Source of the DNA: an uncultured Gammaproteobacteria bacterium
GTDB lineage: Bacteria; Patescibacteriota; Microgenomatia; Levybacterales; UBA12049
Length of the DNA stretch: 64,000 bases
Assembly: GCA_964391315.1 (NCBI GenBank)
Contig: CAYMJR010000003.1
Span: forward strand, 542-64,541
Reading direction: 5' to 3'
Shown: piece after piece, positions 4,036-64,000 of the stretch
Layout of the letters: every line of letters starts with the position of its first letter
Numbering within the stretch: position 1 is the first letter of the stretch
The notes under the pieces: generated by a model
Database searches by the model: none
What the model was told of the DNA's origin: nothing
What the model saw: only the letters and a program-made list of their open reading frames with translations
Position numbers and translations under genes: made by a program

Positions 4036-5085
4036 TTATTTACCTAATTCTATCATCTCGACATCCTCGAGACCAATACCTGCCACAAATTCTTCATGGG
4101 TAGTTGTAATAATCACTTGTCCTCTGCCAGTTAACGTAAAAATCTTTTGAATATTCTTACTATCAAGTTCTGAAAAGATATCATCAAGAAGCAAGAGTGG
4201 CTGAGTTTGAGTTTTGTCTTTTAGATACGAAATTTGTGCCAACTTGAGCTCAAGCGTTACCAAACGCTGTTGTCCTCGGGAAGCAAAATACCTTACATCA
4301 ACCATTTCTTTTGATTCCTCATTGTAACTCTGAATGATCACATCATCTCTATGCGGGCCGACAAGTGTTACCCCTGCTCCAACTTCCGCATCTTTATATT
4401 GTGCCAACCGTTCTTCTGAAATAACACTTTTGTCATAGGTTAATAGACACGGAAAAAATTCTTTTTGTCTGGCATTAATAGATTCGATAAACTCCTCCCG
4501 CTTGTAGGTCAAGACATTGCCTGTCCTAATCACAATTTCATCCCAATATTCAAATTGTCTGGCATTGCGGACACCTGTCTCCTGCACCTGTTCCAATAAT
4601 GCATTCCGCTGCCTCAGAGCTTTTGTATACGTTGTATGAGCAACGCGGTAGTCCATATCCACTTGCTCCAGTACCTCATCAAGAAATCTCCTTCTGCTGC
4701 CCGGCTGTCCGGACACTAGTTCGAGATCTACCGGCGTAAACAACACCGCAGTGATATGTCCCGCAAAATCCACCCGACGCCTCGCAACACTATTCACCAG
4801 ATATTTCTTTTTAAGAAACGCAGTTCCTTGATCTGCGAAAATAATTTCCAAACTATCTTCCTCTAATTCTGCTTTAATCCGGGACACCTGTTTTCCAAAC
4901 TGAATCAACTGCTTCTCCTTCTCTGCACGAAAACTCTTCCCCGTCGCTAACAAAAACAACGACTCCATAAGATTGCTCTTCCCTATCGCATTTGGACCAA
5001 TAATAACAGTCGTCATATCGCTGAACGAAAACTCTGCTTTTGTGTAGTTACGGAAATTTTGAAGAAAGAGGGATTTTACAATCAT
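4036..5085 (-). CDS. recF: DNA replication and repair protein RecF
   Basis: 349-aa ORF. N-terminus LFLQNFRNY...GPNAIGKSNLMES (Walker A); C-terminal LLLLDDIFSELD (Walker B). Confidence 0.9.
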   Translation of the reverse strand: MIVKSLFLQNFRNYTKAEFSFSDMTTVIIGPNAIGKSNLMESLFLLATGKSFRAEKEKQLIQFGKQVSRIKAELEEDSLEIIFADQGTAFLKKKYLVNSVARRRVDFAGHITAVLFTPVDLELVSGQPGSRRRFLDEVLEQVDMDYRVAHTTYTKALRQRNALLEQVQETGVRNARQFEYWDEIVIRTGNVLTYKREEFIESINARQKEFFPCLLTYDKSVISEERLAQYKDAEVGAGVTLVGPHRDDVIIQSYNEESKEMVDVRYFASRGQQRLVTLELKLAQISYLKDKTQTQPLLLLDDIFSELDSKNIQKIFTLTGRGQVIITTTHEEFVAGIGLEDVEMIELGK

Positions 5086-7705: not shown

Positions 7706-8845
7706 CTACTCTTTAACAACGTTTTGGACAAATGCCTGAATTTCCTTTTTAAACCGTTCCTTCGAGAACTTCTCAGCCTGTTTTTTACATGCATCACTAC
7801 TGATTCTTGTCCGTTCAAACTTCTTAATTGCCTCAGTCAAACTATCAACAGTCAGTTGGTGAAAAAAGATACCAGTCTTCCCATCAATCACTGTCTCCCT
7901 ATACCCTCCTCCATGATAGGCAATAACTGGAGTCCCACACAGCATTGCCTCAACAGGAGTAATCCCAAAATCTTCATCTTTTGCCAATGCAAAAAATGCC
8001 TTCGCACCAGAATACAAATCTACTAACTCCTCATCAGTGACATGACCTAAGAACTCAACCTGTCCTTTTGCCATTTCCTGAAGTTTTTTATGTTCTGTAT
8101 AATATCCTGCTGGTGCACCTGCTATTTTCAGTTTGATGCCAAGTTTGAGTGCTGCTTCTACAGCTAAATCTAAACCTTTCGCTCCAACAATTCTTGAAAC
8201 GATAAAATAGTAATCGCGTTTCCTTGATTCGTGATTCGTGATTCGTGATTTTAAACCTACTGGCGGGTAAATTACTGTCGCATTCCGTCGATAAAACTTC
8301 TTAATTCTTCCTGCTACCTCCTGCGAATTGGCAATAAAATAATCCACCTTTTGCGAAGCCATGAAATCATACATCCGCATGAAATGACCAACAATCGTAC
8401 CATACAGCTTTATCGGCCAATACCGTTGCCATTCTACTGATGTGCGATACCCATACAGCCAGCGTGGTGGTGTATGACAATAGCAAATCTCCAATGGTTT
8501 ATGTCGAGTAGATAATGGCGAATGAGCAACCACGCCTTTGGTGATATACCAGGATGCGGAAGTGATAACAACATCATATTTAGAGAAATCAAAACTTTCC
8601 CAAATCCAAGGAGCAAGAAATCGCAAAGGACTATGCAGCTTTGTCGCAAAAAACGGAAGATAGTGTGCCCAGGAAGGAATAATTTTTTTGTTTTTGAAAC
8701 GCTTCCATGCCAGAGAATCTTTGCGGTAGAACGCTGTATAGATCGGTGCATCAGGATAGATCTCACACAGAGCTTCCAAAACCCGTTCCGCTCCCCCGTA
8801 CTCATTTATTTGATCATGAACTAAAGCAACACGTAAGCTCTTCAT
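7706..8845 (-). CDS. Glycosyltransferase family 4 (GT-B, retaining type)
   Basis: 379-aa ORF with C-terminal GT1/GT4 signature EDFGITPVEAMLCGTPVIA. Confidence 0.8.
   Translation of the reverse strand: MKSLRVALVHDQINEYGGAERVLEALCEIYPDAPIYTAFYRKDSLAWKRFKNKKIIPSWAHYLPFFATKLHSPLRFLAPWIWESFDFSKYDVVITSASWYITKGVVAHSPLSTRHKPLEICYCHTPPRWLYGYRTSVEWQRYWPIKLYGTIVGHFMRMYDFMASQKVDYFIANSQEVAGRIKKFYRRNATVIYPPVGLKSRITNHESRKRDYYFIVSRIVGAKGLDLAVEAALKLGIKLKIAGAPAGYYTEHKKLQEMAKGQVEFLGHVTDEELVDLYSGAKAFFALAKDEDFGITPVEAMLCGTPVIAYHGGGYRETVIDGKTGIFFHQLTVDSLTEAIKKFERTRISSDACKKQAEKFSKERFKKEIQAFVQNVVKE
8226..8250. repeat. Heptanucleotide tandem repeat (GATTCGT x3 plus partial) inside the GT4 gene
   Basis: Read directly: gattcgt gattcgt gattcgt gatt. 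It encodes ..SRITNHESR.. on the minus strand. Confidence 0.8.
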
Positions 8846-16816: not shown

Positions 16817-16863
16817 AAAGAGGAAGCAATAAATTTTGTACTTTTCACTTTTAACTTATAATG

Positions 16864-16937
16864 TACCAGAGGCGGGGATCGAACCCGCGACCTCAGCGTT
16901 ATGAATGCTGTGCTCTAACCGGCTGAGCTACCCTGGC
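16864..16937 (-). tRNA. tRNA-Met (anticodon CAT), elongator type
   Basis: Hand-folded cloverleaf GCCAGGG/TA/GCTC..GAGC/CAGCA-TTCATAA-CGCTG/GCGGG-TTCGATC-CCCGC/CTCTGGT-A. G1:U72 is paired and there are no initiator features. Ile2(CAT) identity cannot be excluded from sequence alone. CCA is not encoded. Confidence 0.8.
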
Positions 16938-16963
16938 GTTTTGAGTCCGTATAGTATACCAAT

Positions 16964-16992
16964 TTGACCATGCTTTCCGCAAATGCTATACT
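16964..16992 (+). promoter_or_regulatory. Promoter of the initiator-like tRNA
   Basis: TTGACC (16964-16969), a 17-nt spacer, then TATACT (16987-16992), 12 nt upstream of the tRNA 5' end. Confidence 0.5.
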
Positions 16993-17004
16993 TAAGCCCT
17001 AATG

Positions 17005-17073
17005 CGCGGGGTAGTGTACGGTGCACATGAGGCTCATAATCTTATAGGCTGGGTTCAACTCCCAGCCCCGCAA
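17005..17073 (+). tRNA. Initiator-like tRNA (anticodon CAT), atypical
   Basis: 5' CGCGGGG and 3' CCCCGCA-A match bacterial tRNA-fMet, including the C1:A72 mismatch. Anticodon loop CTCATAA; T arm CTGGG-TTCAACT-CCCAG. It is only 69 nt, has a shortened D arm (GTGTACGGTGCACA), and its anticodon stem is TGAGG/TCTTA rather than three G:C pairs. Confidence 0.6.
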
Positions 17074-17152
17074 CATAAAATTTGTAATCAAATCTAGTAT
17101 TTATTTTATTATCGTTTCCGCCTAGTAGATCTTCCTTGCATTTCACTATTTT

Positions 17153-30961: not shown

Positions 30962-31085
30962 AAAAAAACTCCTCGTTTCCGAGAAGTTGCAAAAACAGTT
31001 GCTTCTAGCTCGGAAGACTTTATTTGGGGATCTGACTGTACAGTTACGGCATAGTGCTCGAATTTCACGAGCTTCACCCACCAAT
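30962..31085 (-). promoter_or_regulatory. Cobalamin-riboswitch-like leader 2
   Basis: Minus-strand read: GGGTGAAG-CTCG TGAAATT CGAG-CACTAT-GCCGTAACTGTA...GAGCTAGAAGCAACTGT. An alternative pairing TTCCGAG/CTCGGAA competes with the hairpin AACTTCTCG-GAAA-CGAGGAGTT, which is followed by T7 and the ATG. Confidence 0.6.
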
Positions 31086-31088
31086 TAA

Positions 31089-31628
31089 TTATTTTTTAAT
31101 CCACTTTATCTCTTTTTTCTTATCAATGTGATTGACATATCGAGCCATAGTAAAAAGTAAGTCTGAAAGCCTGTTTAAATAGATAACAACAGCCTGATCA
31201 ACATCTTCTTTCTGCATAAGCTCTACTAATTGCCTCTCAGCGCGCCGTGTAATCGTCCTGGCCACATGTAACAGTGAGCCAGGCTGCCCACCCCCAGGAA
31301 GGATAAAATATTTGATTTCAGGCATTTTGGCGGTCATCTCATCAATAAGCTTTTCAAACTCCTTTGGACGTTGATTCAAACCTACCACTGGTAATGGGTG
31401 CGGTGTTGCAAGCGCAGAGCCAATATCAAATAAATCGTGCTGGATTTTTTCAAGTTCCTTTTTTACAAGGCTGTGGGGGGCTGTCAGATGTGCTATGACA
31501 GCACCAATTGTGCTATTAAGCTCATCAACCGTTCCATAGCTATCAACCCGTGGATGAGATTTTAGTACTCGCGTACCGTCAAATAATGATGTTTTCCCTT
31601 TATCTCCTGTTCGTGTGTAAATTGCCAT
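31089..31628 (-). CDS. pduO: ATP:cob(I)alamin adenosyltransferase, PduO type
   Basis: 179-aa ORF with N-terminal IYTRTGDKGKTSL and PduO/MMAB-like sequence throughout. Confidence 0.85.
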   Translation of the reverse strand: MAIYTRTGDKGKTSLFDGTRVLKSHPRVDSYGTVDELNSTIGAVIAHLTAPHSLVKKELEKIQHDLFDIGSALATPHPLPVVGLNQRPKEFEKLIDEMTAKMPEIKYFILPGGGQPGSLLHVARTITRRAERQLVELMQKEDVDQAVVIYLNRLSDLLFTMARYVNHIDKKKEIKWIKK

Positions 31629-31790
31629 AAAAAAATCCCTCTTGGTTTCCCGAGAAGGATTGCATGGATAATACAGAAATTCCTGCTCGGGAGAAAAGCT
31701 TAAAGCGAGTTTTCTGTCTATACAGTAGCGGCACTAATAAGGAATTTCACCTTAATTTCCTACACTTTAAGTTTAATTACTTTATCATGA
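31629..31790 (-). promoter_or_regulatory. Cobalamin-riboswitch-like leader 1
   Basis: Minus-strand read: GTAGGAAATT-AAGG TGAAATT CCTT-ATTA-GTGCCGCTACTGTA...GAGCAGGAATTTCTGT. Compare the conserved core GGGAA..GGUGAAAAUCC..GCCCCCGCAACUGUA and the B12 box AGCCAGGAGACCUGCC. The alternative pairing TCCCGAG/CTCGGGA competes with a GAAA-loop hairpin that covers the SD, followed by T7 and the ATG. The 5' boundary is approximate. Confidence 0.65.
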
Positions 31791-56966: not shown

Positions 56967-57407
56967 ATGAAGATAACCAACCGTAAAGCATTTTTTGATG
57001 CGCTCATTCTTGAACGTTTTGAAGCTGGAATAAACCTCCTCGGAGCAGAGGTAAAAGCAGTCAGACTTGGTCATGCTGATCTAACCGGCAGCTTTGTTCG
57101 CATTACCGGAAGTGAAGCATATTTGATCAATGCGAATATCTTTCCGTATGAATATGCCAGACCTGAAGGATATGACCCTAGACGCACAAGAAAGCTGCTT
57201 CTTCATAAGAAGGAAATCATCGCTCTCAAGGCTAAAATGGAAGGCCAAAACTTGACAATCGTGCCTATTTCGATATATACTACAAGTCGTCTAGTCAAAA
57301 TCGAACTAGCCTTAGGCAAACCCAAGAAAAAGATCGATAAGAGACGTGATCTGAAGAAAAAAACAGTCGAGCGGGACATAGACGAAGCACTTAAATACGG
57401 ACGTTAA
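56967..57407 (+). CDS. smpB: SsrA-binding protein
   Basis: 146-aa ORF with GAEVKAVR, RTRKLLLHK and a basic C-terminal tail. It is followed directly by the tmRNA. Confidence 0.9.
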   Translation: MKITNRKAFFDALILERFEAGINLLGAEVKAVRLGHADLTGSFVRITGSEAYLINANIFPYEYARPEGYDPRRTRKLLLHKKEIIALKAKMEGQNLTIVPISIYTTSRLVKIELALGKPKKKIDKRRDLKKKTVERDIDEALKYGR

Positions 57408-57460: not shown

Positions 57461-57879
57461 GGGGATGACTTGATTCGACGAGATTTGTTCTTTAAAAACT
57501 GCAAGCCGACTTTGATACTAGTCGTAAAACAGATCAAAATATAAATGCTAAATCTAGCATTTTCGCACGTCTTGATGCGAAGATCGCAGCCCTCCAGGCT
57601 CGATTGGAAGCTCTTGACGGAGCTGGCCGACAAGCTTATCTTTTTGCTTAAGCTTTAAAGCCTGTTCATACTTCTCTTCCCTCACTGGGAGGGTATGGGC
57701 ATAAATACAGGTGAGGAAAGTAGTAGAGAGTTTGGTTTAGCTTTCTGCCGCATTTTTTAAACCTATACGTTGTTATTCCTGCCAATTGGAAACGGCAGCG
57801 CGAATTATATAAATTGGCTACGCTTGTAGACGTTCTTAAAAATATTTTTCGGACTCCGATTCATTGTCGGACATCTCCA
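57461..57879 (+). ncRNA. ssrA: Transfer-messenger RNA
   Basis: The 5' end is GGGGATGACTTGATTCGACG. The 3' T arm is TCCGA-TTCATTG-TCGGA, with acceptor strand CATCTCC-A pairing to GGGGATG. A tag-like frame ends ..GRQAYLFA-TAA (57646-57651). CCA is not encoded. Confidence 0.8.
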
Positions 57880-57885
57880 CACCTA

Positions 57886-57959: not shown

Positions 57960-58337
57960 GTGGAATTCTTCAAACCAACGTGGAAAAAGCTACTCATTGC
58001 AGCCATCCTTACCTTCTGGCCATATGTAGCAAGCGTAATATTTATCATGCTCACGAAGCATAGAGATAGCATTTCCGATCCTATGGTTCAAGCGAGCTTC
58101 TGGTGCCACACCTACTACTGGTCACCACTTTATCCTCTTGTTCAGCTTATTCCCAACTCTCAATCAAATCAGTTTTGGCAATCCAATACCTTTTATTTTT
58201 TTGTGTATCCTCTCCTGAGATTCTCAATTAGATATGTTGTCGCCTGCGCCATAATCTTTTTTGCAAATAAGCTAGTAAATAAGAATTCCAAGATAAAACA
58301 AAAGGCTTCCCCATCAGTCAGCAAAAGAAATAGCTGA
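57960..58337 (+). CDS. Hypothetical 4-TM membrane protein (GTG start)
   Basis: 125-aa ORF and the only gene between the two copies of the tmRNA 3' end. Confidence 0.4.
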   Translation: MEFFKPTWKKLLIAAILTFWPYVASVIFIMLTKHRDSISDPMVQASFWCHTYYWSPLYPLVQLIPNSQSNQFWQSNTFYFFVYPLLRFSIRYVVACAIIFFANKLVNKNSKIKQKASPSVSKRNS

Positions 58338-58351
58338 AATATAAAACATGT

Positions 58352-58404
58352 TCCAACTTTCTTTGGACATCTTCACACCTACCCCGCCACCCGGCGGGGT
58401 TTTT
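58352..58404 (+). repeat. Duplicate of the tmRNA T arm, 3' acceptor strand and terminator
   Basis: TCCAA-CTTTCT-TTGGA, then CATCTTCACACCTACCCCGCCACCCGGCGGGGTTTTT. The last 40 nt differ at 2 positions from 57869-57909. The T-arm stem is changed compensatorily (TCCGA/TCGGA to TCCAA/TTGGA). Confidence 0.8.
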
Positions 58405-58427
58405 ATTGAAAACTAATTCCCCTGTCT

Positions 58428-59405
58428 ATGCACCTTTCTTACAAAACTCGTACACTCTTAGACAAAGATATGGAGTTTACTAGATCATATCCTATGACTA
58501 TTGAAGCTATCAGAACTCCGCTAGATGGTTCAAATACAAATAAGCAGAGAACAAGACTAGGAGAAACAGAAGCAGACCCTTCCTTTATGCGTCCCTTACG
58601 TGGAGAAGAGCTTATGCAATTTGGTGAAACAGAACAGCTACTTCCTTATGTTCGCGCACAAGCAGCACGACGCTTCCCTTTTCATGTTAACCAACTTATG
58701 AGTGCCGTCGATATTGGTATAACCCAATATCATGGACATACGCCGAGAAGAGACGGCACTGAAGCATCTATACATCAAGTTCGAACCTTGTATCGAGCTC
58801 TATTAGATGATCCTGAACTAACACCTGTACAAGGAGCAATATTAGGCAACCATGACACGATTGAAGATCTTGGTTTGACCCAAAGAGATTTTGCAGAACT
58901 TCTTGGGATGCGCGAAGATAAATTTTCTCCTAAAGATATATCTCGTATTGCTTTCGGAGTCAATATATTCAGCCGTATAAGAGATGGAAAAAAATTATCT
59001 CAACCAGCATATATGGGAGGATTAGAGGATCTCCATTGGGCAGATTGTGATCTGGGAGTTATTGGAGGGAAAGCCTGGGATGGTATAGATAATGGAGAAA
59101 ATGACAAATTCATACTCATCAATGACCCTCCATCAATCGATCCTAAGAGAGTTTTAGACTTTGTAAATGGGAAATTAGAAGACGTACATAAACTTGCAAA
59201 GAGATATATACCGCAAGCTATAAGCACCCATATGCTCGCCGACACAATTCGTACCGCCAGAAGATTGGCACTCCGAGAACTTGAAATCCGAGAACTAGGA
59301 ATAAGAGAGAATGAGACTCGCAAAGCAAAACTCGGACTGCAACAAAGAAATGCTGAACACAATGTATTTACTGACCATGGGCGAGTGTTATCCCCCACAC
59401 GTTAG
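58428..59405 (+). CDS. HD-domain protein, RelA/SpoT-hydrolase-like
   Basis: YHGHTPRRDGTEASIHQV...ILGNHDTIEDLGLTQRDFAELLG parallels H.G..R..G.....H...LHD..ED...FG of (p)ppGpp hydrolase domains. The start codon choice is uncertain. Confidence 0.5.
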   Translation: MHLSYKTRTLLDKDMEFTRSYPMTIEAIRTPLDGSNTNKQRTRLGETEADPSFMRPLRGEELMQFGETEQLLPYVRAQAARRFPFHVNQLMSAVDIGITQYHGHTPRRDGTEASIHQVRTLYRALLDDPELTPVQGAILGNHDTIEDLGLTQRDFAELLGMREDKFSPKDISRIAFGVNIFSRIRDGKKLSQPAYMGGLEDLHWADCDLGVIGGKAWDGIDNGENDKFILINDPPSIDPKRVLDFVNGKLEDVHKLAKRYIPQAISTHMLADTIRTARRLALRELEIRELGIRENETRKAKLGLQQRNAEHNVFTDHGRVLSPTR

Positions 59406-59497
59406 CAACTCCTGCCTTTTTTAACACTTTTGCAGCTTCTTTGAGGGTGGTACCGGAAGTAACGACATCAGCAACAATGTAATAGAAAAGGGGTGAA
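59368..59497 (-). pseudogene. C-terminal remnant of a ComF/phosphoribosyltransferase-type gene
   Basis: My translation: ..YYIVADVVTSGTTLKEAAKVLKKAGVANVWGITLAHGQ*. This is the PRPP-binding loop (VDDVxTTGxT-like) plus the tail. The frame has no start and runs into the tRNA-Ser gene. It overlaps the 3' end of ORF 58428..59405. Confidence 0.4.
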
Positions 59498-59498
59498 G

Positions 59499-59583
59499 CG
59501 GAGAGGGTGGGATTCGAACCCACGGTATCTTGCGACACGGAGGTTTAGTAAACCTCTGCACTCGGCCACTATGCGACCTCTCC
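59499..59583 (-). tRNA. tRNA-Ser, anticodon ACT (unusual A34)
   Basis: Type II fold: GGAGAGG/TC/GCA..TGC/A/GAGGT-TTACTAA-ACCTC/long arm GTGTC-GCAA-GATAC/TGGG-TTCGAAT-CCCA/CCCTCTCC with G73. Confidence 0.7.
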
Positions 59584-59638
59584 TTGATTAATAAATGTTA
59601 TTCTCCTTAAGGCTCGTCCTCTTGAGGACGACCTCTCC
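59584..59638 (-). repeat. tRNA-Ser leader module (for Ser-ACT)
   Basis: On the tRNA strand: GGAGAGGTCGTCCT-CAAG-AGGACGAGCC-TTAAGGAGAATAACATTTATTAATCAAG, then the tRNA. Confidence 0.8.
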
Positions 59639-59649
59639 TACCTCTTATG

Positions 59650-59739
59650 CGGAGGAGACAGGATTTGAACCTGCGCGAGTTTTTTTAGGAACTCAGAGGG
59701 TTAGCAACCCTCCGCAATGGGCCTCTATGCGACTCCTCC
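59650..59739 (-). tRNA. tRNA-Ser (anticodon GCT)
   Basis: Type II fold: GGAGGAG.../GAGGG-TTGCTAA-CCCTC/long arm GAGTT..AACTC/CAGG-TTCAAAT-CCTG/TCTCCTCC-G. Confidence 0.85.
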
Positions 59740-59801
59740 ATGATTTTTAAGTTAAATTATAAATAGTGGAGTCGTCCTCCTGAGGGCGACTTCCTCCCTC
59801 C
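59740..59801 (-). repeat. tRNA-Ser leader module (for Ser-GCT)
   Basis: On the tRNA strand: GGAGGAAGTCGCCCT-CAGG-AGGACGACTCC-ACTATTTATAATTTAACTTAAAAATCAT, then the tRNA. Confidence 0.75.
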
Positions 59802-59807
59802 TTATTT

Positions 59808-59897
59808 TGGCGGAGAGGGCGAGATTCGAACTCGCGGTAGGCGTGAACCCACAGATGTTTTCAAGACATCCGCACTAGACCGCTATGCGACCTCTCC
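59808..59897 (-). tRNA. tRNA-Ser (anticodon TGA), CCA encoded
   Basis: Type II fold: GGAGAGG.../GATGT-CTTGAAA-ACATC/long arm/GCGAG-TTCGAAT-CTCGC/CCTCTCC-G-CCA. Confidence 0.85.
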
Positions 59898-59952
59898 TTG
59901 ATTAATAAATGTTATTCTCCTTGAGGCTCGTCCTCTTGAGGGCGACCTCTCC
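59898..59952 (-). repeat. tRNA-Ser leader module (for Ser-TGA)
   Basis: On the tRNA strand: GGAGAGGTCGCCCT-CAAG-AGGACGAGCC-TCAAGGAGAATAACATTTATTAATCAAG, then the tRNA. It is nearly identical to the module at 59584-59638. Confidence 0.8.
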
Positions 59953-60092
59953 ATAAATATCACCTTTTTATTCCACTTTGCGTATCAAAAAGTCCGTGGA
60001 TTGTATTGTACCAGAAACAAGCTTTCGATTCATCTTCAACAATTCTTGCAACTTTTCTTGACTTCTTTTTTCTCATCAACTAGCATGAAAGT

Positions 60093-60686
60093 ATGGAGAA
60101 GAAAAGGCAACGCGCTCAACAATGGCAACAAAAGCAAAATAGTGATTCTCAGCCCCAGCACGAAGAGGATAGTCATTTTCAGCTACCCACCCATGAGGTG
60201 CATACCTATCTCTCCTGGGAAGCACCAGGTCGACCTTTTAAAGAACGAAGTCGGGAATTTTTTGTGAATGGCTTTCTCCTCATGATGGCTGTTCAGATAA
60301 TTCTTTTTCTCTTTTCACAGTATCTGCTGATGCTCGTTGTCTTCTCTCTTCTTTTTCTCTCATTTGCTCTTTCAAGCGTACCACCACGAATGTTTCACTA
60401 TAAAATAAGTTCTCAAGGAATACTCGTTGATAAAAGTTTTTTCATTTGGGAAGAACTGTATGATTTTTACTTTTTTAAACATCATGGAAAAGAAACACTC
60501 CACGTGACAACCAGAAGTTTTTTTCCTGGAGAATTGACATTAACACTTGGTGATATTTCTATTGAGGATGTCAAAAAAGCACTTCTTCCCTTTTTACCGT
60601 TTCGTGAACATGTTGAACCAACCTGGCTTGAAAAAGCTGGAGACTGGCTTGAAAGTAACTTTCCTCTTGAACGCAGTGCTCGATAG
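60093..60686 (+). CDS. Hypothetical two-TM membrane protein with PH-like C-terminal part
   Basis: 197-aa ORF with a TTGACT..TAGCAT promoter-like sequence upstream. Confidence 0.5.
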   Translation: MEKKRQRAQQWQQKQNSDSQPQHEEDSHFQLPTHEVHTYLSWEAPGRPFKERSREFFVNGFLLMMAVQIILFLFSQYLLMLVVFSLLFLSFALSSVPPRMFHYKISSQGILVDKSFFIWEELYDFYFFKHHGKETLHVTTRSFFPGELTLTLGDISIEDVKKALLPFLPFREHVEPTWLEKAGDWLESNFPLERSAR

Positions 60687-60738
60687 CTCTCTATTTGCTT
60701 GTTGAAGCTAAATCCAGTAAAATACAATATACAAAAAT

Positions 60739-60813
60739 GCGCCCGTAGCTCAGCTGGATTAGAGCATTGGATTGCGGATCCAAAGGTCGGAAGTTCGAAT
60801 CTTCTCGGGCGTA
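60739..60813 (+). tRNA. tRNA-Arg (anticodon GCG)
   Basis: GCGCCCG/TA/GCTC-AGCTGGATTA-GAGC/A/TTGGA-TTGCGGA-TCCAA/AGGTC/GGAAG-TTCGAAT-CTTCT/CGGGCGT-A. Confidence 0.8.
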
Positions 60814-60846
60814 CTATTCCTCAGTTCTAACGCATCTGTCGATTCT

Positions 60847-60900
60847 GGAGGGATTCGTCCACAGGACGAACCCATTATTGGTAATAAAACTATTAATCAG
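60847..60900 (+). repeat. tRNA-Ser leader module (for Ser-CGA)
   Basis: GGAGGGATTCGTCC-ACAG-GGACGAACCC-ATTATTGGTAATAAAACTATTAATCAG, then the tRNA. Confidence 0.75.
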
Positions 60901-60985
60901 GGAGGGTTCGCATAGTGGCCAATTGCACGAGTTTCGAAAACTCGACCCGTTCGCGGGTTCACAGGTTCGAATCCTGTACCCTCCG
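60901..60985 (+). tRNA. tRNA-Ser (anticodon CGA)
   Basis: Type II fold: GGAGGGT/TC/GCA..TGC/A/CGAGT-TTCGAAA-ACTCG/long arm/ACAGG-TTCGAAT-CCTGT/ACCCTCC-G. Confidence 0.85.
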
Positions 60986-60992
60986 CTTATAT

Positions 60993-61064
60993 ACCTCCGT
61001 AGGCTAATGGATAAACCGCAGGATTCCGGATCCTGATATGCGGGTTCGATTCCCGCCGGGGGTA
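60993..61064 (+). tRNA. tRNA-Arg (anticodon CCG)
   Basis: ACCTCCG/TA/.../CAGGA-TTCCGGA-TCCTG/ATAT/GCGGG-TTCGATT-CCCGC/CGGGGGT-A. The D stem is weak. It starts 7 nt after tRNA-Ser. Confidence 0.7.
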
Positions 61065-61183
61065 CTCTTTCCAACTTCAATTATAATTAACTTCAGAGAC
61101 AGCTTGAGTGAAATTCCCAATACCTTGAAAATAAAAAATATATCACCTATTATTACAATGGTTATGCTCTAGAAATCTCATAT

Positions 61184-62746
61184 ATGAGCTACACAAAAAA
61201 AGTACGCCCAAACGAAGAAACAAATCATTCCAAATCAATGCCTCTAAAGTATGTAAAACAATATGGTGTATATCTCCTTCTATCTCTTTTTCTTATCCTT
61301 GGTCTTATCATAAGATCTGAAGGTATTTTTAACAATCATGTCTTATTTTTGTTTGATAATGCACGGGACTATTTATATGTTAAGAATATTGTTGTTGACC
61401 ATAGAATATATTTAATCGGACCTTCTAGTGGTGGATTGGAGGGGTATTTCCACGGAGTTTTGTGGTATTACCTTTTAACTATTCCATTTATTCTTGGTTA
61501 TGGAAATCCTCTATCAGGGAATATTTTTATGATTGTTGGTTCCCTTGCTTCTGTTGTTGCTGCTTTTTTTCTTATGCGAAAAATATCTAATACCTATGCT
61601 GCACTCCTTGCGTCGCTTTTTTTCGCTGTGATATTTTTCTCTGTAGCAACTGCACGCTTTATTTGGAATCCATATCCAATTGTCTGGCTAATGCCTTTCT
61701 ATTTTTATTTTGTCTATCAATTTTTCTCAAAAAAAATTGGTTTTATTTGGCTAGCACTACTCTCAGGTCTTTTTCTTCATTTTGAAGCAGTCTACGGCGT
61801 TCCTATGCTTTTCCCGTTTTTTGTTCTTGTAGGAATTGAAATGTATAGAAAGCAATTAAAACAACTATTACTGGGGTTACTATTGTTTGTACTTCCTATG
61901 CTTCCTTCACTTGTTTTTGATCTAAGACACCATTTCTTAATTATTGGAAGCATAGTCAAAACATTTCTTACCGGCGGTGGCACAGTAACTCATGACAGTC
62001 ATGCTGTACCGGTGATGACACGCATTGTTTTGCGTACACAAGATTTATTTACCTATACAATAGGTTCCTTAACAACCAACACAATTATCAGTATTATTTT
62101 GGCAATTGCTGCAATCTTCTCGATAAAACAACAAAAACGCTCCTTTCTTCTCTTTTCAGCTTTTGTACTTATCACACCCTATATAATATTTCTTTTTATG
62201 AAGTATTCCGTGTGGTCATATTACTGGATAGGTGAAACACCATATTTTGTTCTTCTTATTAGTTTGCTTGTTGGAACGATACCTAAAAAGGTATTACCTA
62301 TTGTTGCAATGGTAATTGTTTTTGTTTTCTCAGGATATTTTGCAGACCTTCAATTGCACAAAAATGGGTATGCCAATGAGGGCTCTCAAACCTTGTCAAC
62401 AGAATTGCGTGTCGTTGATTCAATTTATAATGATGCTGGAGGACAACCTTTTTCATTTTATCAGCTTACACCCCCTGTTTATGACTATGTCTATAGATAT
62501 GTTTATTGGTGGAGAGGATATACTACTTATCATTATTACCCGCAACAACAAAAACAACACTTAGCATATCTTGTTATTGACCCGAGCCCAGATGATCCAA
62601 ATGGTATCTTTTTCATGACTCACTCACTTAACATGCAAACAAAACCTATCAAGCAATGGAGTTTTGCTGGTGTTAAAATTGATAAATTTATTACGCTGCC
62701 GAATGAGCCACAAGTAGATGTGAGTATTTTCCCACCCCTTAACTGA
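61184..62746 (+). CDS. Polytopic membrane protein, GT-C (ArnT/PMT)-like
   Basis: 520-aa ORF with about 11 TM segments plus a C-terminal soluble domain. The assignment is by architecture only. Confidence 0.5.
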   Translation: MSYTKKVRPNEETNHSKSMPLKYVKQYGVYLLLSLFLILGLIIRSEGIFNNHVLFLFDNARDYLYVKNIVVDHRIYLIGPSSGGLEGYFHGVLWYYLLTIPFILGYGNPLSGNIFMIVGSLASVVAAFFLMRKISNTYAALLASLFFAVIFFSVATARFIWNPYPIVWLMPFYFYFVYQFFSKKIGFIWLALLSGLFLHFEAVYGVPMLFPFFVLVGIEMYRKQLKQLLLGLLLFVLPMLPSLVFDLRHHFLIIGSIVKTFLTGGGTVTHDSHAVPVMTRIVLRTQDLFTYTIGSLTTNTIISIILAIAAIFSIKQQKRSFLLFSAFVLITPYIIFLFMKYSVWSYYWIGETPYFVLLISLLVGTIPKKVLPIVAMVIVFVFSGYFADLQLHKNGYANEGSQTLSTELRVVDSIYNDAGGQPFSFYQLTPPVYDYVYRYVYWWRGYTTYHYYPQQQKQHLAYLVIDPSPDDPNGIFFMTHSLNMQTKPIKQWSFAGVKIDKFITLPNEPQVDVSIFPPLN

Positions 62747-63819: not shown

Positions 63820-64000
63820 AGACTTTCTGTCATTGTATACACTCTTCAGATTTTATGCAAATAGAAGAGAAATCCGTTATAATGACACAAGAAGTATATT
63901 GATTGCTCTAACTCCATACTTGATAGTAACTTTATAAAATCATAATAAAAACCCAGGAGGGATCACTCTTTAGGACGATCCCAATGAAAATAAGATTTGT

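Follow-up and report, generated by a model that had tools for sequence, protein, structure and literature searches.

Phage T4 carries, within a tRNA cluster, the free-standing GIY-YIG homing endonuclease gene segB, which recognises a T-psi-C stem-loop motif and spreads itself together with flanking tRNA DNA by break repair (PMC2330249). Here we describe a short module that precedes the tRNA-Ser genes of an uncultured, ultra-small patescibacterium (contig CAYMJR010000003.1 of assembly GCA_964391315.1, positions 542 to 64,541 of the forward strand; this whole stretch of 64,000 nucleotides (nt) is called the window), together with small GIY-YIG cassettes found at tRNA genes of its relatives. T4 segB is the nearest known case to these cassettes, which likewise consist of a small GIY-YIG gene among tRNA genes, the tRNA copy in the Arg and Asp cassettes being truncated at the T-stem. 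However, segB has not been reported to produce partial copies of a tRNA interrupted by GC hairpins, and the Ser module differs from it in having no open reading frame (ORF), in lying in the 5' leader and in using its tRNA copy as one arm of a hairpin. The GIY-YIG proteins of these candidate phyla radiation (CPR) bacteria are putative nucleases.

Homing-endonuclease genes are said, in the Goddard-Burt model, to cycle through invasion, fixation, degeneration and loss, with introns and inteins leaving ORF-less remnants. With this cycle, the elements described here have in common that they are patchily distributed, that ORF-less derivatives exist, that close relatives have empty sites and that nuclease and remnant apparently exclude each other, but unlike in introns and inteins, the tRNA behind a Ser module would owe its function to a duplicated 5' end and to removal of the leader by RNase P, not to splicing. 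Egan and Landy reportedly found in 1978 that a copy of the 3' end of tRNA-Tyr stands at the start of each 178-base-pair (bp) repeat of the Escherichia coli tyrT locus. These, too, are flanking units with a partial copy of the adjacent tRNA, varied by unequal recombination; they differ in that the 3'-end copies lie downstream, without inverted copy or hairpin, and at one locus in one species instead of at every isoacceptor. Short GC-rich imperfect hairpins with bulges and G.T-type mismatches, repeated in a genome, are also a feature of repetitive extragenic palindromes and bacterial interspersed mosaic elements (REP/BIME) and of miniature inverted-repeat transposable elements (MITE), but those occupy tens to hundreds of intergenic sites, whereas the Ser module is confined to sites before tRNA-Ser, lacks terminal inverted repeats and changes its arms with the neighbouring gene. 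At the RNA level, a natural pre-tRNA leader pairing with the 3'-RCCA end affects RNase P (PMC9433436), and an RNase P riboswitch has been designed (PMC7897497). In these cases as well, 5' leader structure can alter maturation, and competition for the acceptor end is the principle of the switch model weighed below; there, the nucleotides adjoining the cleavage site take part in the structure, in contrast to the Ser hairpin, which lies 25-30 nt upstream of that site, with a proximal leader predicted to be single-stranded. Finally, CPR bacteria harbor insertion sequences with homing endonucleases in their rRNA genes (PMC11270868), i.e., selfish insertions in conserved stable-RNA genes of the same host group, though target (rRNA), element type and mode of insertion removal differ.

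In the window we identified five modules of about 55 bases each, one before every tRNA-Ser gene of this bacterium (5/5). Each is composed of a copy of tRNA nt 1-11 (head copy), an inverted copy of nt 4-10 (anti-head), a variable loop and an AT-rich tail of 25-30 nt that terminates at tRNA +1. Four of them had been described in an earlier note on this DNA and were all found at their sites, while a fifth (M5, before Ser-GGA) was added. Bit scores refer to the covariance model R1, which was built from 26 module copies and run over the window with filters off.

M1, 59898..59952, minus strand: module preceding Ser-TGA, model match of 64.4 bits, sequence GGAGAGGTCGCCCTCAAGAGGACGAGCCTCAAGGAGAATAACATTTATTAATCAA
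M1 head copy, 59952-59942, minus strand: GGAGAGGTCGC, identical to tRNA nt 1-11 (11/11 nt match)
M1 bulged stem-loop, 59949-59923, minus strand: GAGGTCGCCCT-CAAG-AGGACGA-G-CCTC, with a C.A mismatch
M1 AT-rich tail, 59922-59898, minus strand
M2, 59740..59797, minus strand: module preceding Ser-GCT, model match of 58.7 bits, sequence GGAGGAAGTCGCCCTCAGGAGGACGACTCCACTATTTATAATTTAACTTAAAAATCAT
M2 head copy, 59797-59786, minus strand: GGAGGA-A-GTCGC, 10 nt match plus one inserted A
M2 stem-loop, 59794-59768, minus strand: 3' arm CGACTCC, the exact complement of tRNA nt 4-10
M2 tail, 59767-59740, minus strand: contains TATAAT 22 nt before the tRNA
M3, 59584..59638, minus strand: module preceding Ser-ACT, model match of 62.2 bits
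M3 head copy, 59638-59629, minus strand: 10/10 nt match
M3 stem-loop, 59635-59609, minus strand: perfect inner stem TCGTCCT/AGGACGA plus a bulged G
M3 tail, 59608-59584, minus strand
M4, 60847..60900, plus strand: module preceding Ser-CGA, model match of 45.5 bits, sequence GGAGGGATTCGTCCACAGGACGAACCCATTATTGGTAATAAAACTATTAATCAG
M4 head copy, 60847-60857, plus strand: GGAGGG-A-TTCG, 10 nt match plus one inserted A
M4 stem-loop, 60850-60873, plus strand: loop ACA; 3' arm CGAACCC, the exact complement of tRNA nt 4-10
M4 tail, 60874-60900, plus strand
M5, 63956..64000, plus strand: starts with GGAGGGATCACTCTTTAGGACGATCCC and is interrupted by the window end, model match of 28.8 bits (63956-63999)

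M5 is complete in the identical contig L001 (contigs and loci of relatives carry L numbers), where the module at 4064-4115 is followed by tRNA-Ser-GGA at 4116-4205, just beyond our window. Modules in the near-identical strains L001-L006 showed no polymorphism and were uninformative. That each module opens with a copy of the cognate tRNA head, as stated in the earlier note, was borne out for M1 and M3 by uninterrupted copies and for M2 and M4 by copies with the inserted A. The hairpin, which that note had given as 9-10 bp with a tetraloop, was likewise recovered, though its dimensions needed correction: past GGACGA, the 3' arm continues as complement of head nt 4-7 (GAGG/CCTC, GGA/TCC, GGG/CCC), the stem closed by the anti-head comprises 11-12 bp including a 1-nt bulge at the nt 7/8 junction, and the loop of M4 reads ACA and not ACAG. 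Nearly always the stem contains a bulge or mismatch, such as the C.A mismatch in M1 and M2 where the copy retains C11 of the tRNA. A degenerate pattern of the module hit three window sites, with 0.00 expected by chance.

Relatives were gathered via homologues of ORF197 (60093-60686), the gene between the tRNA clusters, which came from Patescibacteria, Levybacteria and Microgenomates assemblies, and via one genome scan and one metagenome scan. The catalogue comprises 36 module copies from 12 relatives, and L142 and L146 gave four further model matches. As the earlier note had observed for the copied head, the module tracks its tRNA: head copy and inverted arm follow nine cognate head variants (GAGG, GGAG, GGGT, GGGA, GAGA, GAAG, AGGA, GGGG and GAGGTG), examples for nt 4-10 being GGAAGGATCG (L056), GGAGAAGTCG (L082), GGAGAGATCG (L007, L110) and GGAGAGGTG in L017, the tRNA of which has a classical D-arm. 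In genomes with several head types, the cognate head was strictly the best match for 23 of 32 copies, with seven ties. In the model-based alignment of the 36 distinct copies, 80% of the cells were paired, and the covariation of hairpin and head proposed as a check was present, partly confounded in that both arms derive from the tRNA: two-sided changes were found in 30 cells compared with 13.7 in shuffles, none of 500 shuffles reached the observed value, and slid controls scored far lower. Since z-scores from single-sequence folding are modest (-0.65 to -4.3, the latter for M4), support for the predicted hairpin is comparative rather than drawn from single-sequence folding.

Considering nt 4-10, the copy is exact in 18 modules and the inverted arm in 17, yet both are exact in only 4 of 36 (Fisher p = 0.007), and therefore the stem is almost always imperfect. 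The symmetry of 18 and 17 also led us to reject the idea that the anti-head is tied to the true head instead of the copy. Differences between copy and tRNA cluster at nt 5-8 and nt 10, while nt 1-6 hardly ever deviate; most copies retain nt 1-3 although these do not pair (5 changes in 36 copies). Conservation extends to the half-sites TCGYCC / GGACGA, the outer stem changes in concert with the tRNA, and loop length ranges from 3 to 13 nt. A general outer helix between the 5' flank AUAAGGUG and tail CACUUAU was dismissed, as it appears in few copies only (L107) and looks like an inter-tRNA spacer feature.

In regard to specificity, the model matched only M1-M4 and M5 in the window at E<0.01, in agreement with the earlier observation that the neighbouring Arg, Met and Ile tRNAs lack the module. 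Concerning a generic repeat, which had been named as a possible refutation, every match in relatives (150 kb) lies immediately upstream of tRNA-Ser or of another module. Neither in the window nor in relatives was the module found before Arg, Met, Ile or Gly tRNAs, and a head copy was present at 0 of 21-25 non-Ser tRNAs of the clade. The pattern used for the genome scan asked only for GGACGA 24-42 nt before a tRNA-Ser head and returned 90 loci, about 80 of which belong to unrelated phyla and have no head copy or hairpin; the covariance model gave no match in these roughly 80 loci and none in viral sequences. True modules all came from genomes that also carry the ORF197 cluster. Among 73 tRNA-Ser genes of other phyla, one 8-nt copy was seen, and the layout of copy plus inverted copy in none.

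Occupancy of the Ser genes varied from genome to genome, with 5/5 (window, L007, L049+L082), 3/5, 2/4, 1/4, 0/5 (L009, L011) and 0/3 (L013, L143/L145). Absence from close relatives, named in the earlier note as a refuting condition, does not apply in general, the module being present in many relatives, but L009, L011, L013, L143/L145 and L147, close relatives with the same tRNA set, have no module at any Ser gene. In the ORF197 tree, module-less genomes are nested among module-bearing ones. The consensus (GGACGA plus tail motif) is kept across genomes whose neighbouring proteins share only 31-76% identity, the most distant carrier being L017 with an ORF197 protein identity of only 31%.

Pairwise module identity is about 0.70 whether two copies share the genome, the anticodon or neither, and for 15 of 32 copies the best partner stands at a different anticodon in another genome. 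M1 and M3 are identical at 53/55 positions (96%; repeat D2); their upstream flanks are unrelated, the block of identity begins exactly at nt 1 of the head copy, and the tRNA 5' halves behind them are only about 76% identical (estimate from repeat D2). L078, L056 and L110 hold tandem modules of different subtypes, in L082 the hairpin is duplicated, and a direct repeat at Ser-ACT of L007 reaches into the tail (TTAATAATCAAGGAGAGATCGC twice). Because of patchy occupancy, mosaic similarity, tandems and the M1/M3 identity block, the pattern is that of an element apparently copied between sites, gained and lost, unlike a stable orthologous leader.

Besides the module, we identified GIY-YIG ORFs of about 80 amino acids at tRNA-Arg, -Asp and -Cys genes of relatives, arranged in the order promoter, truncated tRNA copy (11-53 nt) with GC hairpin, ORF and complete tRNA. 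A second cassette type is located directly downstream of tRNA-Ser, behind hairpins including GGCGGACAAGTCCGCC.

L143, 1414-1799: Arg cassette
L147, 2946-3327: Arg cassette
L149, 2682-3070: Asp cassette
L152, 2222-2923: Asp cassettes
L148, 2987-3468: Asp cassettes
L156, 2949-3312: Cys cassette
L009, 8269-8603: 3'-type GIY cassette at tRNA-Ser
L013, 5395-5721, minus strand: 3'-type GIY cassette at tRNA-Ser
L069 (Berkelbacteria), 4752-5047: 3'-type GIY cassette at tRNA-Ser

In L143 and L147, the Arg promoter is followed by a tRNA-Arg copy with its anticodon arm replaced by GTCGCC-GC-GGCGAC and ending in the T-stem, then by the GIY ORF and, 0-2 nt on, by the complete tRNA-Arg. The hairpin replaces the anticodon arm of the tRNA copy in the Asp cassettes as well. 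While L149 has one Asp cassette, L152 carries two 313-nt units in tandem (311/313 identical), and L148 a full unit plus a second one that equals the first minus exactly 220 nt of ORF. This leaves an ORF-less unit of 93 nt, consisting of a 26-nt head copy, the GC hairpin and an AT-rich remnant abutting tRNA-Asp. In the Cys cassette of L156, the tRNA copy is interrupted by the GC hairpin behind nt 11, and the Ser head copy ends at this same point. As for the 3' type, the spacer between Ser-GCT and Ser-ACT in L009 (5568-5647) is filled by an ORF-less copy of the cassette's 5' region, and since it is identical to the ORF-bearing Berkelbacteria copy of L069 at 34/38 positions, transfer of this cassette between phyla is suggested. 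Proteins of this GIY-YIG family in databases often have terminal extensions that are translated tRNA sequence. No description of these tRNA-resident cassettes was found in the literature searched, and altogether the finding corresponds to no known RNA family and suggests that Patescibacteria have a set of such cassettes that has gone undescribed.

A GIY ORF lies directly beside a tRNA of the same cluster in three of four module-less relatives, which were gathered irrespective of GIY genes, compared with none of 14 module-bearing genomes (Fisher p about 0.005, ignoring phylogeny and locus size). A tblastn search with three GIY proteins gave no match in the window or in any module-bearing locus.

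Based on these data, we consider the Ser module to be, as the best-supported reading but at roughly even odds (about 0.5), an ORF-less, miniaturised relative of the GIY-YIG cassettes living at tRNA genes. This link rests on architecture and shared locus, not on sequence homology. Like the cassettes, the five window modules contain a partial 5' tRNA copy (10-11 nt), the hairpin begins within or after nt 7-11 of this copy, and Ser modules occur in tandem in the four relatives named above, the route of ORF deletion being documented for Asp only. Among the three roles offered by the earlier note, the duplication scar of this tRNA family lies closest to this reading and is the best supported one, namely by tandems, patchy occupancy, mosaic similarity, the M1/M3 block and the GIY cassettes including the Asp ORF deletion; taken as a whole, the interpretation given there is partly supported.

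How such a module could have arisen and spread can be sketched as follows. A cassette sits between the tRNA promoter and the tRNA, where a second copy of the 5' part, left behind or carried along, would keep the gene intact. Loss of the ORF would then leave head copy, hairpin, AT-rich remnant and tRNA, as in the anatomy of the Ser module, the head copy being the tRNA 5' end duplicated by the insertion and the tail the new leader. The Ser hairpin would be the counterpart of the GC hairpin that breaks the spare copy in the cassettes, here closed by the inverted head copy. Recombination, template switching or break repair, each anchored on the common 5' sequence GGAGnnnTCGCATAG, could spread the module among the Ser isoacceptors, and this would account for serine specificity and for an upstream copy resembling the local tRNA, while slippage between the two heads would add or remove units and thereby yield tandem arrays and clean losses. 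In the transcript, head copy and inverted copy would snap into the stem-loop and the spare head be kept off the 3' acceptor strand; the AT-rich tail would stay single-stranded and RNase P discard the whole leader at little cost to the host. Common origin with the GIY cassettes, spread, slippage and neutralisation by the hairpin are what we infer from the comparison.

Several observations weigh against a relationship to the cassettes. The 25-30 nt Ser tail contains no ORF, and as a GIY match is lacking as well, the Ser module can be classed no further than as a putative derivative without an ORF. On the GIY cassettes, no match was obtained with the covariance model, and similarity between tail and ORF 3' end is insignificant (mean z 0.45); the tail as a relic of this ORF end was therefore given up, matches such as CTTAAGAATAA not rising above shuffled AT-rich controls. 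Moreover, no ORF-bearing cassette was found 5' of any tRNA-Ser, and the GIY genes that do occur by tRNA-Ser lie downstream. The candidate P0218, picked for its C-terminal extension into a tRNA, proved to belong to tRNA-Cys. In the Arg, Asp and Cys cassettes, the hairpin is self-contained, while that of the Ser module uses the head copy as one arm. Conservation of the consensus among genomes with such divergent neighbouring proteins also fits a host function, the anti-correlation of GIY genes and modules comes from few genomes with loci of unequal length and ignores kinship, and transcription, RNase P cleavage and nuclease activity are predictions.

For the question of whether the module is part of the precursor RNA, promoters were predicted at the following position and in relatives.

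60005..60013, minus strand: extended -10 promoter TGGTACAAT, ending 52 nt upstream of M1

An orthologue of this element is found 20 nt before the Ser-TGA module of L146, and TGnTAnnnT or TATAAT boxes are located 7-61 nt upstream of the head copy in the first module of each unit, where no tRNA lies directly upstream. The Ser-GCT promoter TGGTATAAT stands 9 nt before the tRNA in module-less L009 and before the module in L007 and L107. Since the promoters lie upstream of it, the module is predicted to be part of the transcribed 5' leader; a start downstream of the hairpin, by which its role in the RNA could have been refuted, is not what the predicted promoters indicate. In about half of the internal modules, the tail holds TATAAT or the extended form of the -10 box at a distance of 21-23 nt from the tRNA (TATAAT at -22 in nine tails, mainly those of internal modules), so that transcripts of some tRNAs may also lack the hairpin. 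In predicted minimum-energy folds, the copy or the anti-head displaces the native acceptor pairing in three of the five window precursors. A head copy standing at the ancestral promoter-relative position of the tRNA was excluded by inconsistent promoter distances (7 to 52 nt), and a -35/-10 promoter across the hairpin by the lack of an acceptable -35 box.

A role in precursor processing or folding, with the leader copy as a competitor for the 3' acceptor strand, was put forward in the earlier note and is possible: the upstream promoters and the invasion in three of five folds argue for it, whole genomes without the module against it. A host cis-regulatory RNA switch along these lines seems unlikely to us. 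Here, the balance between three exclusive helices (head copy/anti-head; anti-head/true tRNA nt 4-10; head copy/3' acceptor strand) would gate acceptor-stem formation and RNase P maturation of all tRNA-Ser jointly. Such a switch would agree with the place of the module inside the predicted transcript, with two arms matched to the cognate tRNA through nine head variants, with unpaired nt 1-3 retained in most copies and almost invariably exact nt 1-6, with a stem nearly always weakened by bulge or mismatch, with the displaced acceptor pairing and with a consensus conserved over deep lineages. However, no sensor or trigger is evident, and for an attenuator or riboswitch-like leader, alternative helices are possible in silico but neither terminator nor aptamer nor sensor was found by Rfam and terminator scans. 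The hairpin, 25-30 nt away from the RNase P site, leaves this site unmasked, near-equal energies of alternative folds are trivial given two identical strands, the tail boxes in about half of the internal modules could start hairpin-free transcripts, and the module-less relatives listed above manage with the same tRNA set. Nor are the 5' ends of tRNA-Ser predicted to be more prone to misfolding, with a predicted 5'-end pairing in partial transcripts of 0.56 for module-bearing Ser compared with 0.59 for module-less Ser and 0.50 for other tRNAs, values by which a folding-chaperone rationale was rejected, too.

Active slippage, as seen in the tandem arrays and in the direct repeat at Ser-ACT of L007, and compensatory stem variation would also agree with a purely local origin, i.e., a spacer or leader hairpin for processing, stability or punctuation that began as a small tandem duplication at the 5' end of the tRNA, unrelated to GIY cassettes; slippage between heads would keep the copy tRNA-like, and selection on the stem would keep the other arm complementary. 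The other lineage-specific hairpins flanking tRNAs in relatives and the missing sequence homology to GIY cassettes fit this as well, but it leaves unexplained the mosaic, phylogeny-independent similarity, the tandem modules of differing subtypes and the occupation of unlinked Ser genes (CGA, GGA), and would reduce the layout common with ORF-bearing cassettes, including the Cys hairpin after nt 11, to coincidence, so that we regard it as improbable. Far less credible is an element acting at the DNA level, be it a hairpin in single-stranded DNA or antisense RNA as recombination or nuclease site, or a dimer operator by the tail promoter. The antisense strand does fold better in 22 copies (sense strand in 8), and the same pairing scheme pairs 87% of cells antisense compared with 80% sense, because the recurrent C.A mismatch becomes G.U; yet this mismatch is explained by the copy keeping C11 of the tRNA, and G.U pairs occur on the sense strand, too. 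A function of the antisense strand was therefore discarded, the energy gain coming mainly from this one inherited position. The TATAAT at -22 in nine tails would suit such an element, but modules occur in both orientations relative to GC skew, no antisense promoter or -35 box was found, and the half-site spacing of 3 to 13 nt is intolerable for a dimeric operator. Thus, of the protein binding site considered in the earlier note, an operator in double-stranded DNA is unlikely, while an RNA-binding protein is possible.

Going beyond a miniaturised relative of GIY-YIG cassettes, one may tentatively, and with more doubt than confidence, think of the module as an active protein-less mobile cassette of a new kind in a removable tRNA leader, with the first ~11 nt of the tRNA as attachment or homology site, the target regenerated at each insertion and the antisense arm neutralising the spare head. 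It may then have swept all serine isoacceptors, possibly mobilised in trans by tRNA-targeting GIY-YIG nucleases or conferring immunity against them; in a variant of this idea, it may have been domesticated as a common switch on tRNA-Ser maturation.

Other known identities were excluded. An intrinsic terminator, already discounted in the earlier note, has the stem but would need a U-tract, which is absent: there are 0-5 T among the 10 nt that follow the stem, tails of type A starting with AAGGAGAAUA, and the terminator scan reports none at the modules. Rfam 15 returned for 58000-62500 at E<=5 only tRNAs and sub-threshold chance matches, none of them on modules, and at gathering threshold for the whole window only tRNAs, one transfer-messenger RNA (tmRNA) and two AdoCbl-II matches. 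A dispersed repeat of the REP or MITE type does not agree with five copies in 64 kb that all stand before tRNA-Ser and lack terminal inverted repeats. Despite conserved half-sites, an operator bound by a dimeric protein does not agree with their variable spacing and an outer stem that covaries with the tRNA. An att-site duplication by an integrase was rejected, as the copy represents the tRNA 5' end, about 45 nt from every Ser gene, with no integrase adjacent. Phage origin was likewise dismissed, none of five pattern matches in viral contigs fitting the module model.

Some tRNA flanks of relatives carry further structures. Upstream of tRNA-Arg-GCG, L013 has a mini cassette of its own (7948-8120, minus strand), made up of a head copy of 22 nt, an inverted copy with a bulge and a spacer of 25 nt, and L049 a degenerate Arg head copy 67 nt before the tRNA, so the head-copy layout is not strictly limited to serine in this clade. 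Other lineage-specific repeated hairpins fill module-less flanks, namely before Ser-TGA and Ser-CGA in L107/L115, before Ser-CGA in L078 (a palindrome of -35 kcal/mol) and after Ser-GGA and Ser-TGA in L013, where the repeat AACGTAAGAAATCGCTTCGCGATTTCAACG lies behind two tRNAs.

The window itself has a G+C content of 40% and encodes SmpB, penicillin-binding proteins and many proteins without a Pfam match. ARAGORN detected nine tRNAs, among them the minus-strand tandem of Ser-ACT, Ser-GCT and Ser-TGA and, on the plus strand, Arg-GCG, Ser-CGA and Arg-CCG. The tRNA-Ser genes behind M1-M4 are:

59808..59897, minus strand: tRNA-Ser-TGA, first gene of the three-gene Ser operon
59649..59739, minus strand: tRNA-Ser-GCT
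59498..59583, minus strand: tRNA-Ser-ACT, with an unusual anticodon
60901..60986, plus strand: tRNA-Ser-CGA

Transfer RNAs with A34 are unusual in bacteria except tRNA-Arg-ACG. Ser-ACT (A34) stands beside a normal Ser-GCT and is kept in nearly all relatives that hold the cluster. Next to it, a remnant of a comF-like phosphoribosyltransferase gene (59371-59481, minus strand) retains only the final 37 codons, compared with 232 amino acids in L007. Since order and orientation of the three clustered Ser genes vary among relatives, the border of the Ser cluster is a rearrangement hot spot. Elsewhere in the window, smpB (56967-57407, plus strand) is directly followed by the tmRNA gene (57461-57882, plus strand), the two AdoCbl-II (cobalamin) riboswitch aptamer matches (31019-31092 and 31700-31770, both minus strand) lie about 600 nt apart with scores barely above gathering, and a back-to-back divergent pair of tRNA-Met genes (16863-17074), 67 nt apart, has a TGnTA-type -10 box for each gene in the common spacer. 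The records of L044, L049, L082 and L056 are titled 'uncultured Gammaproteobacteria', labels that look wrong: L049 and L056 contain a patescibacterial ORF197 homologue, and L082 is another contig of the metagenome-assembled genome of L049. L044 has no ORF197 match in its 8 kb, yet shows the same arrangement of module-bearing tRNA-Ser genes.

Should the module regulate maturation, it would be the first natural leader that, through mimicry of the end of the tRNA itself, controls all members of an isoacceptor family. If it is indeed an ORF-less relative of the GIY-YIG cassettes, it would show a simple route for selfish DNA into essential, conserved tRNA genes without lethality, in which the element rides the leader that RNase P discards, duplicates the tRNA 5' end and ties up the spare copy in a hairpin. 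The comparison brings to light very small GIY-YIG cassettes that form a family at tRNA-Arg, -Asp, -Cys and -Ser genes of Patescibacteria. In annotation, their partial tRNA copies account for unusual extensions at the N- and C-termini of predicted GIY proteins, for breaks in assemblies at tRNA-Ser clusters and for spurious calls of repeats.

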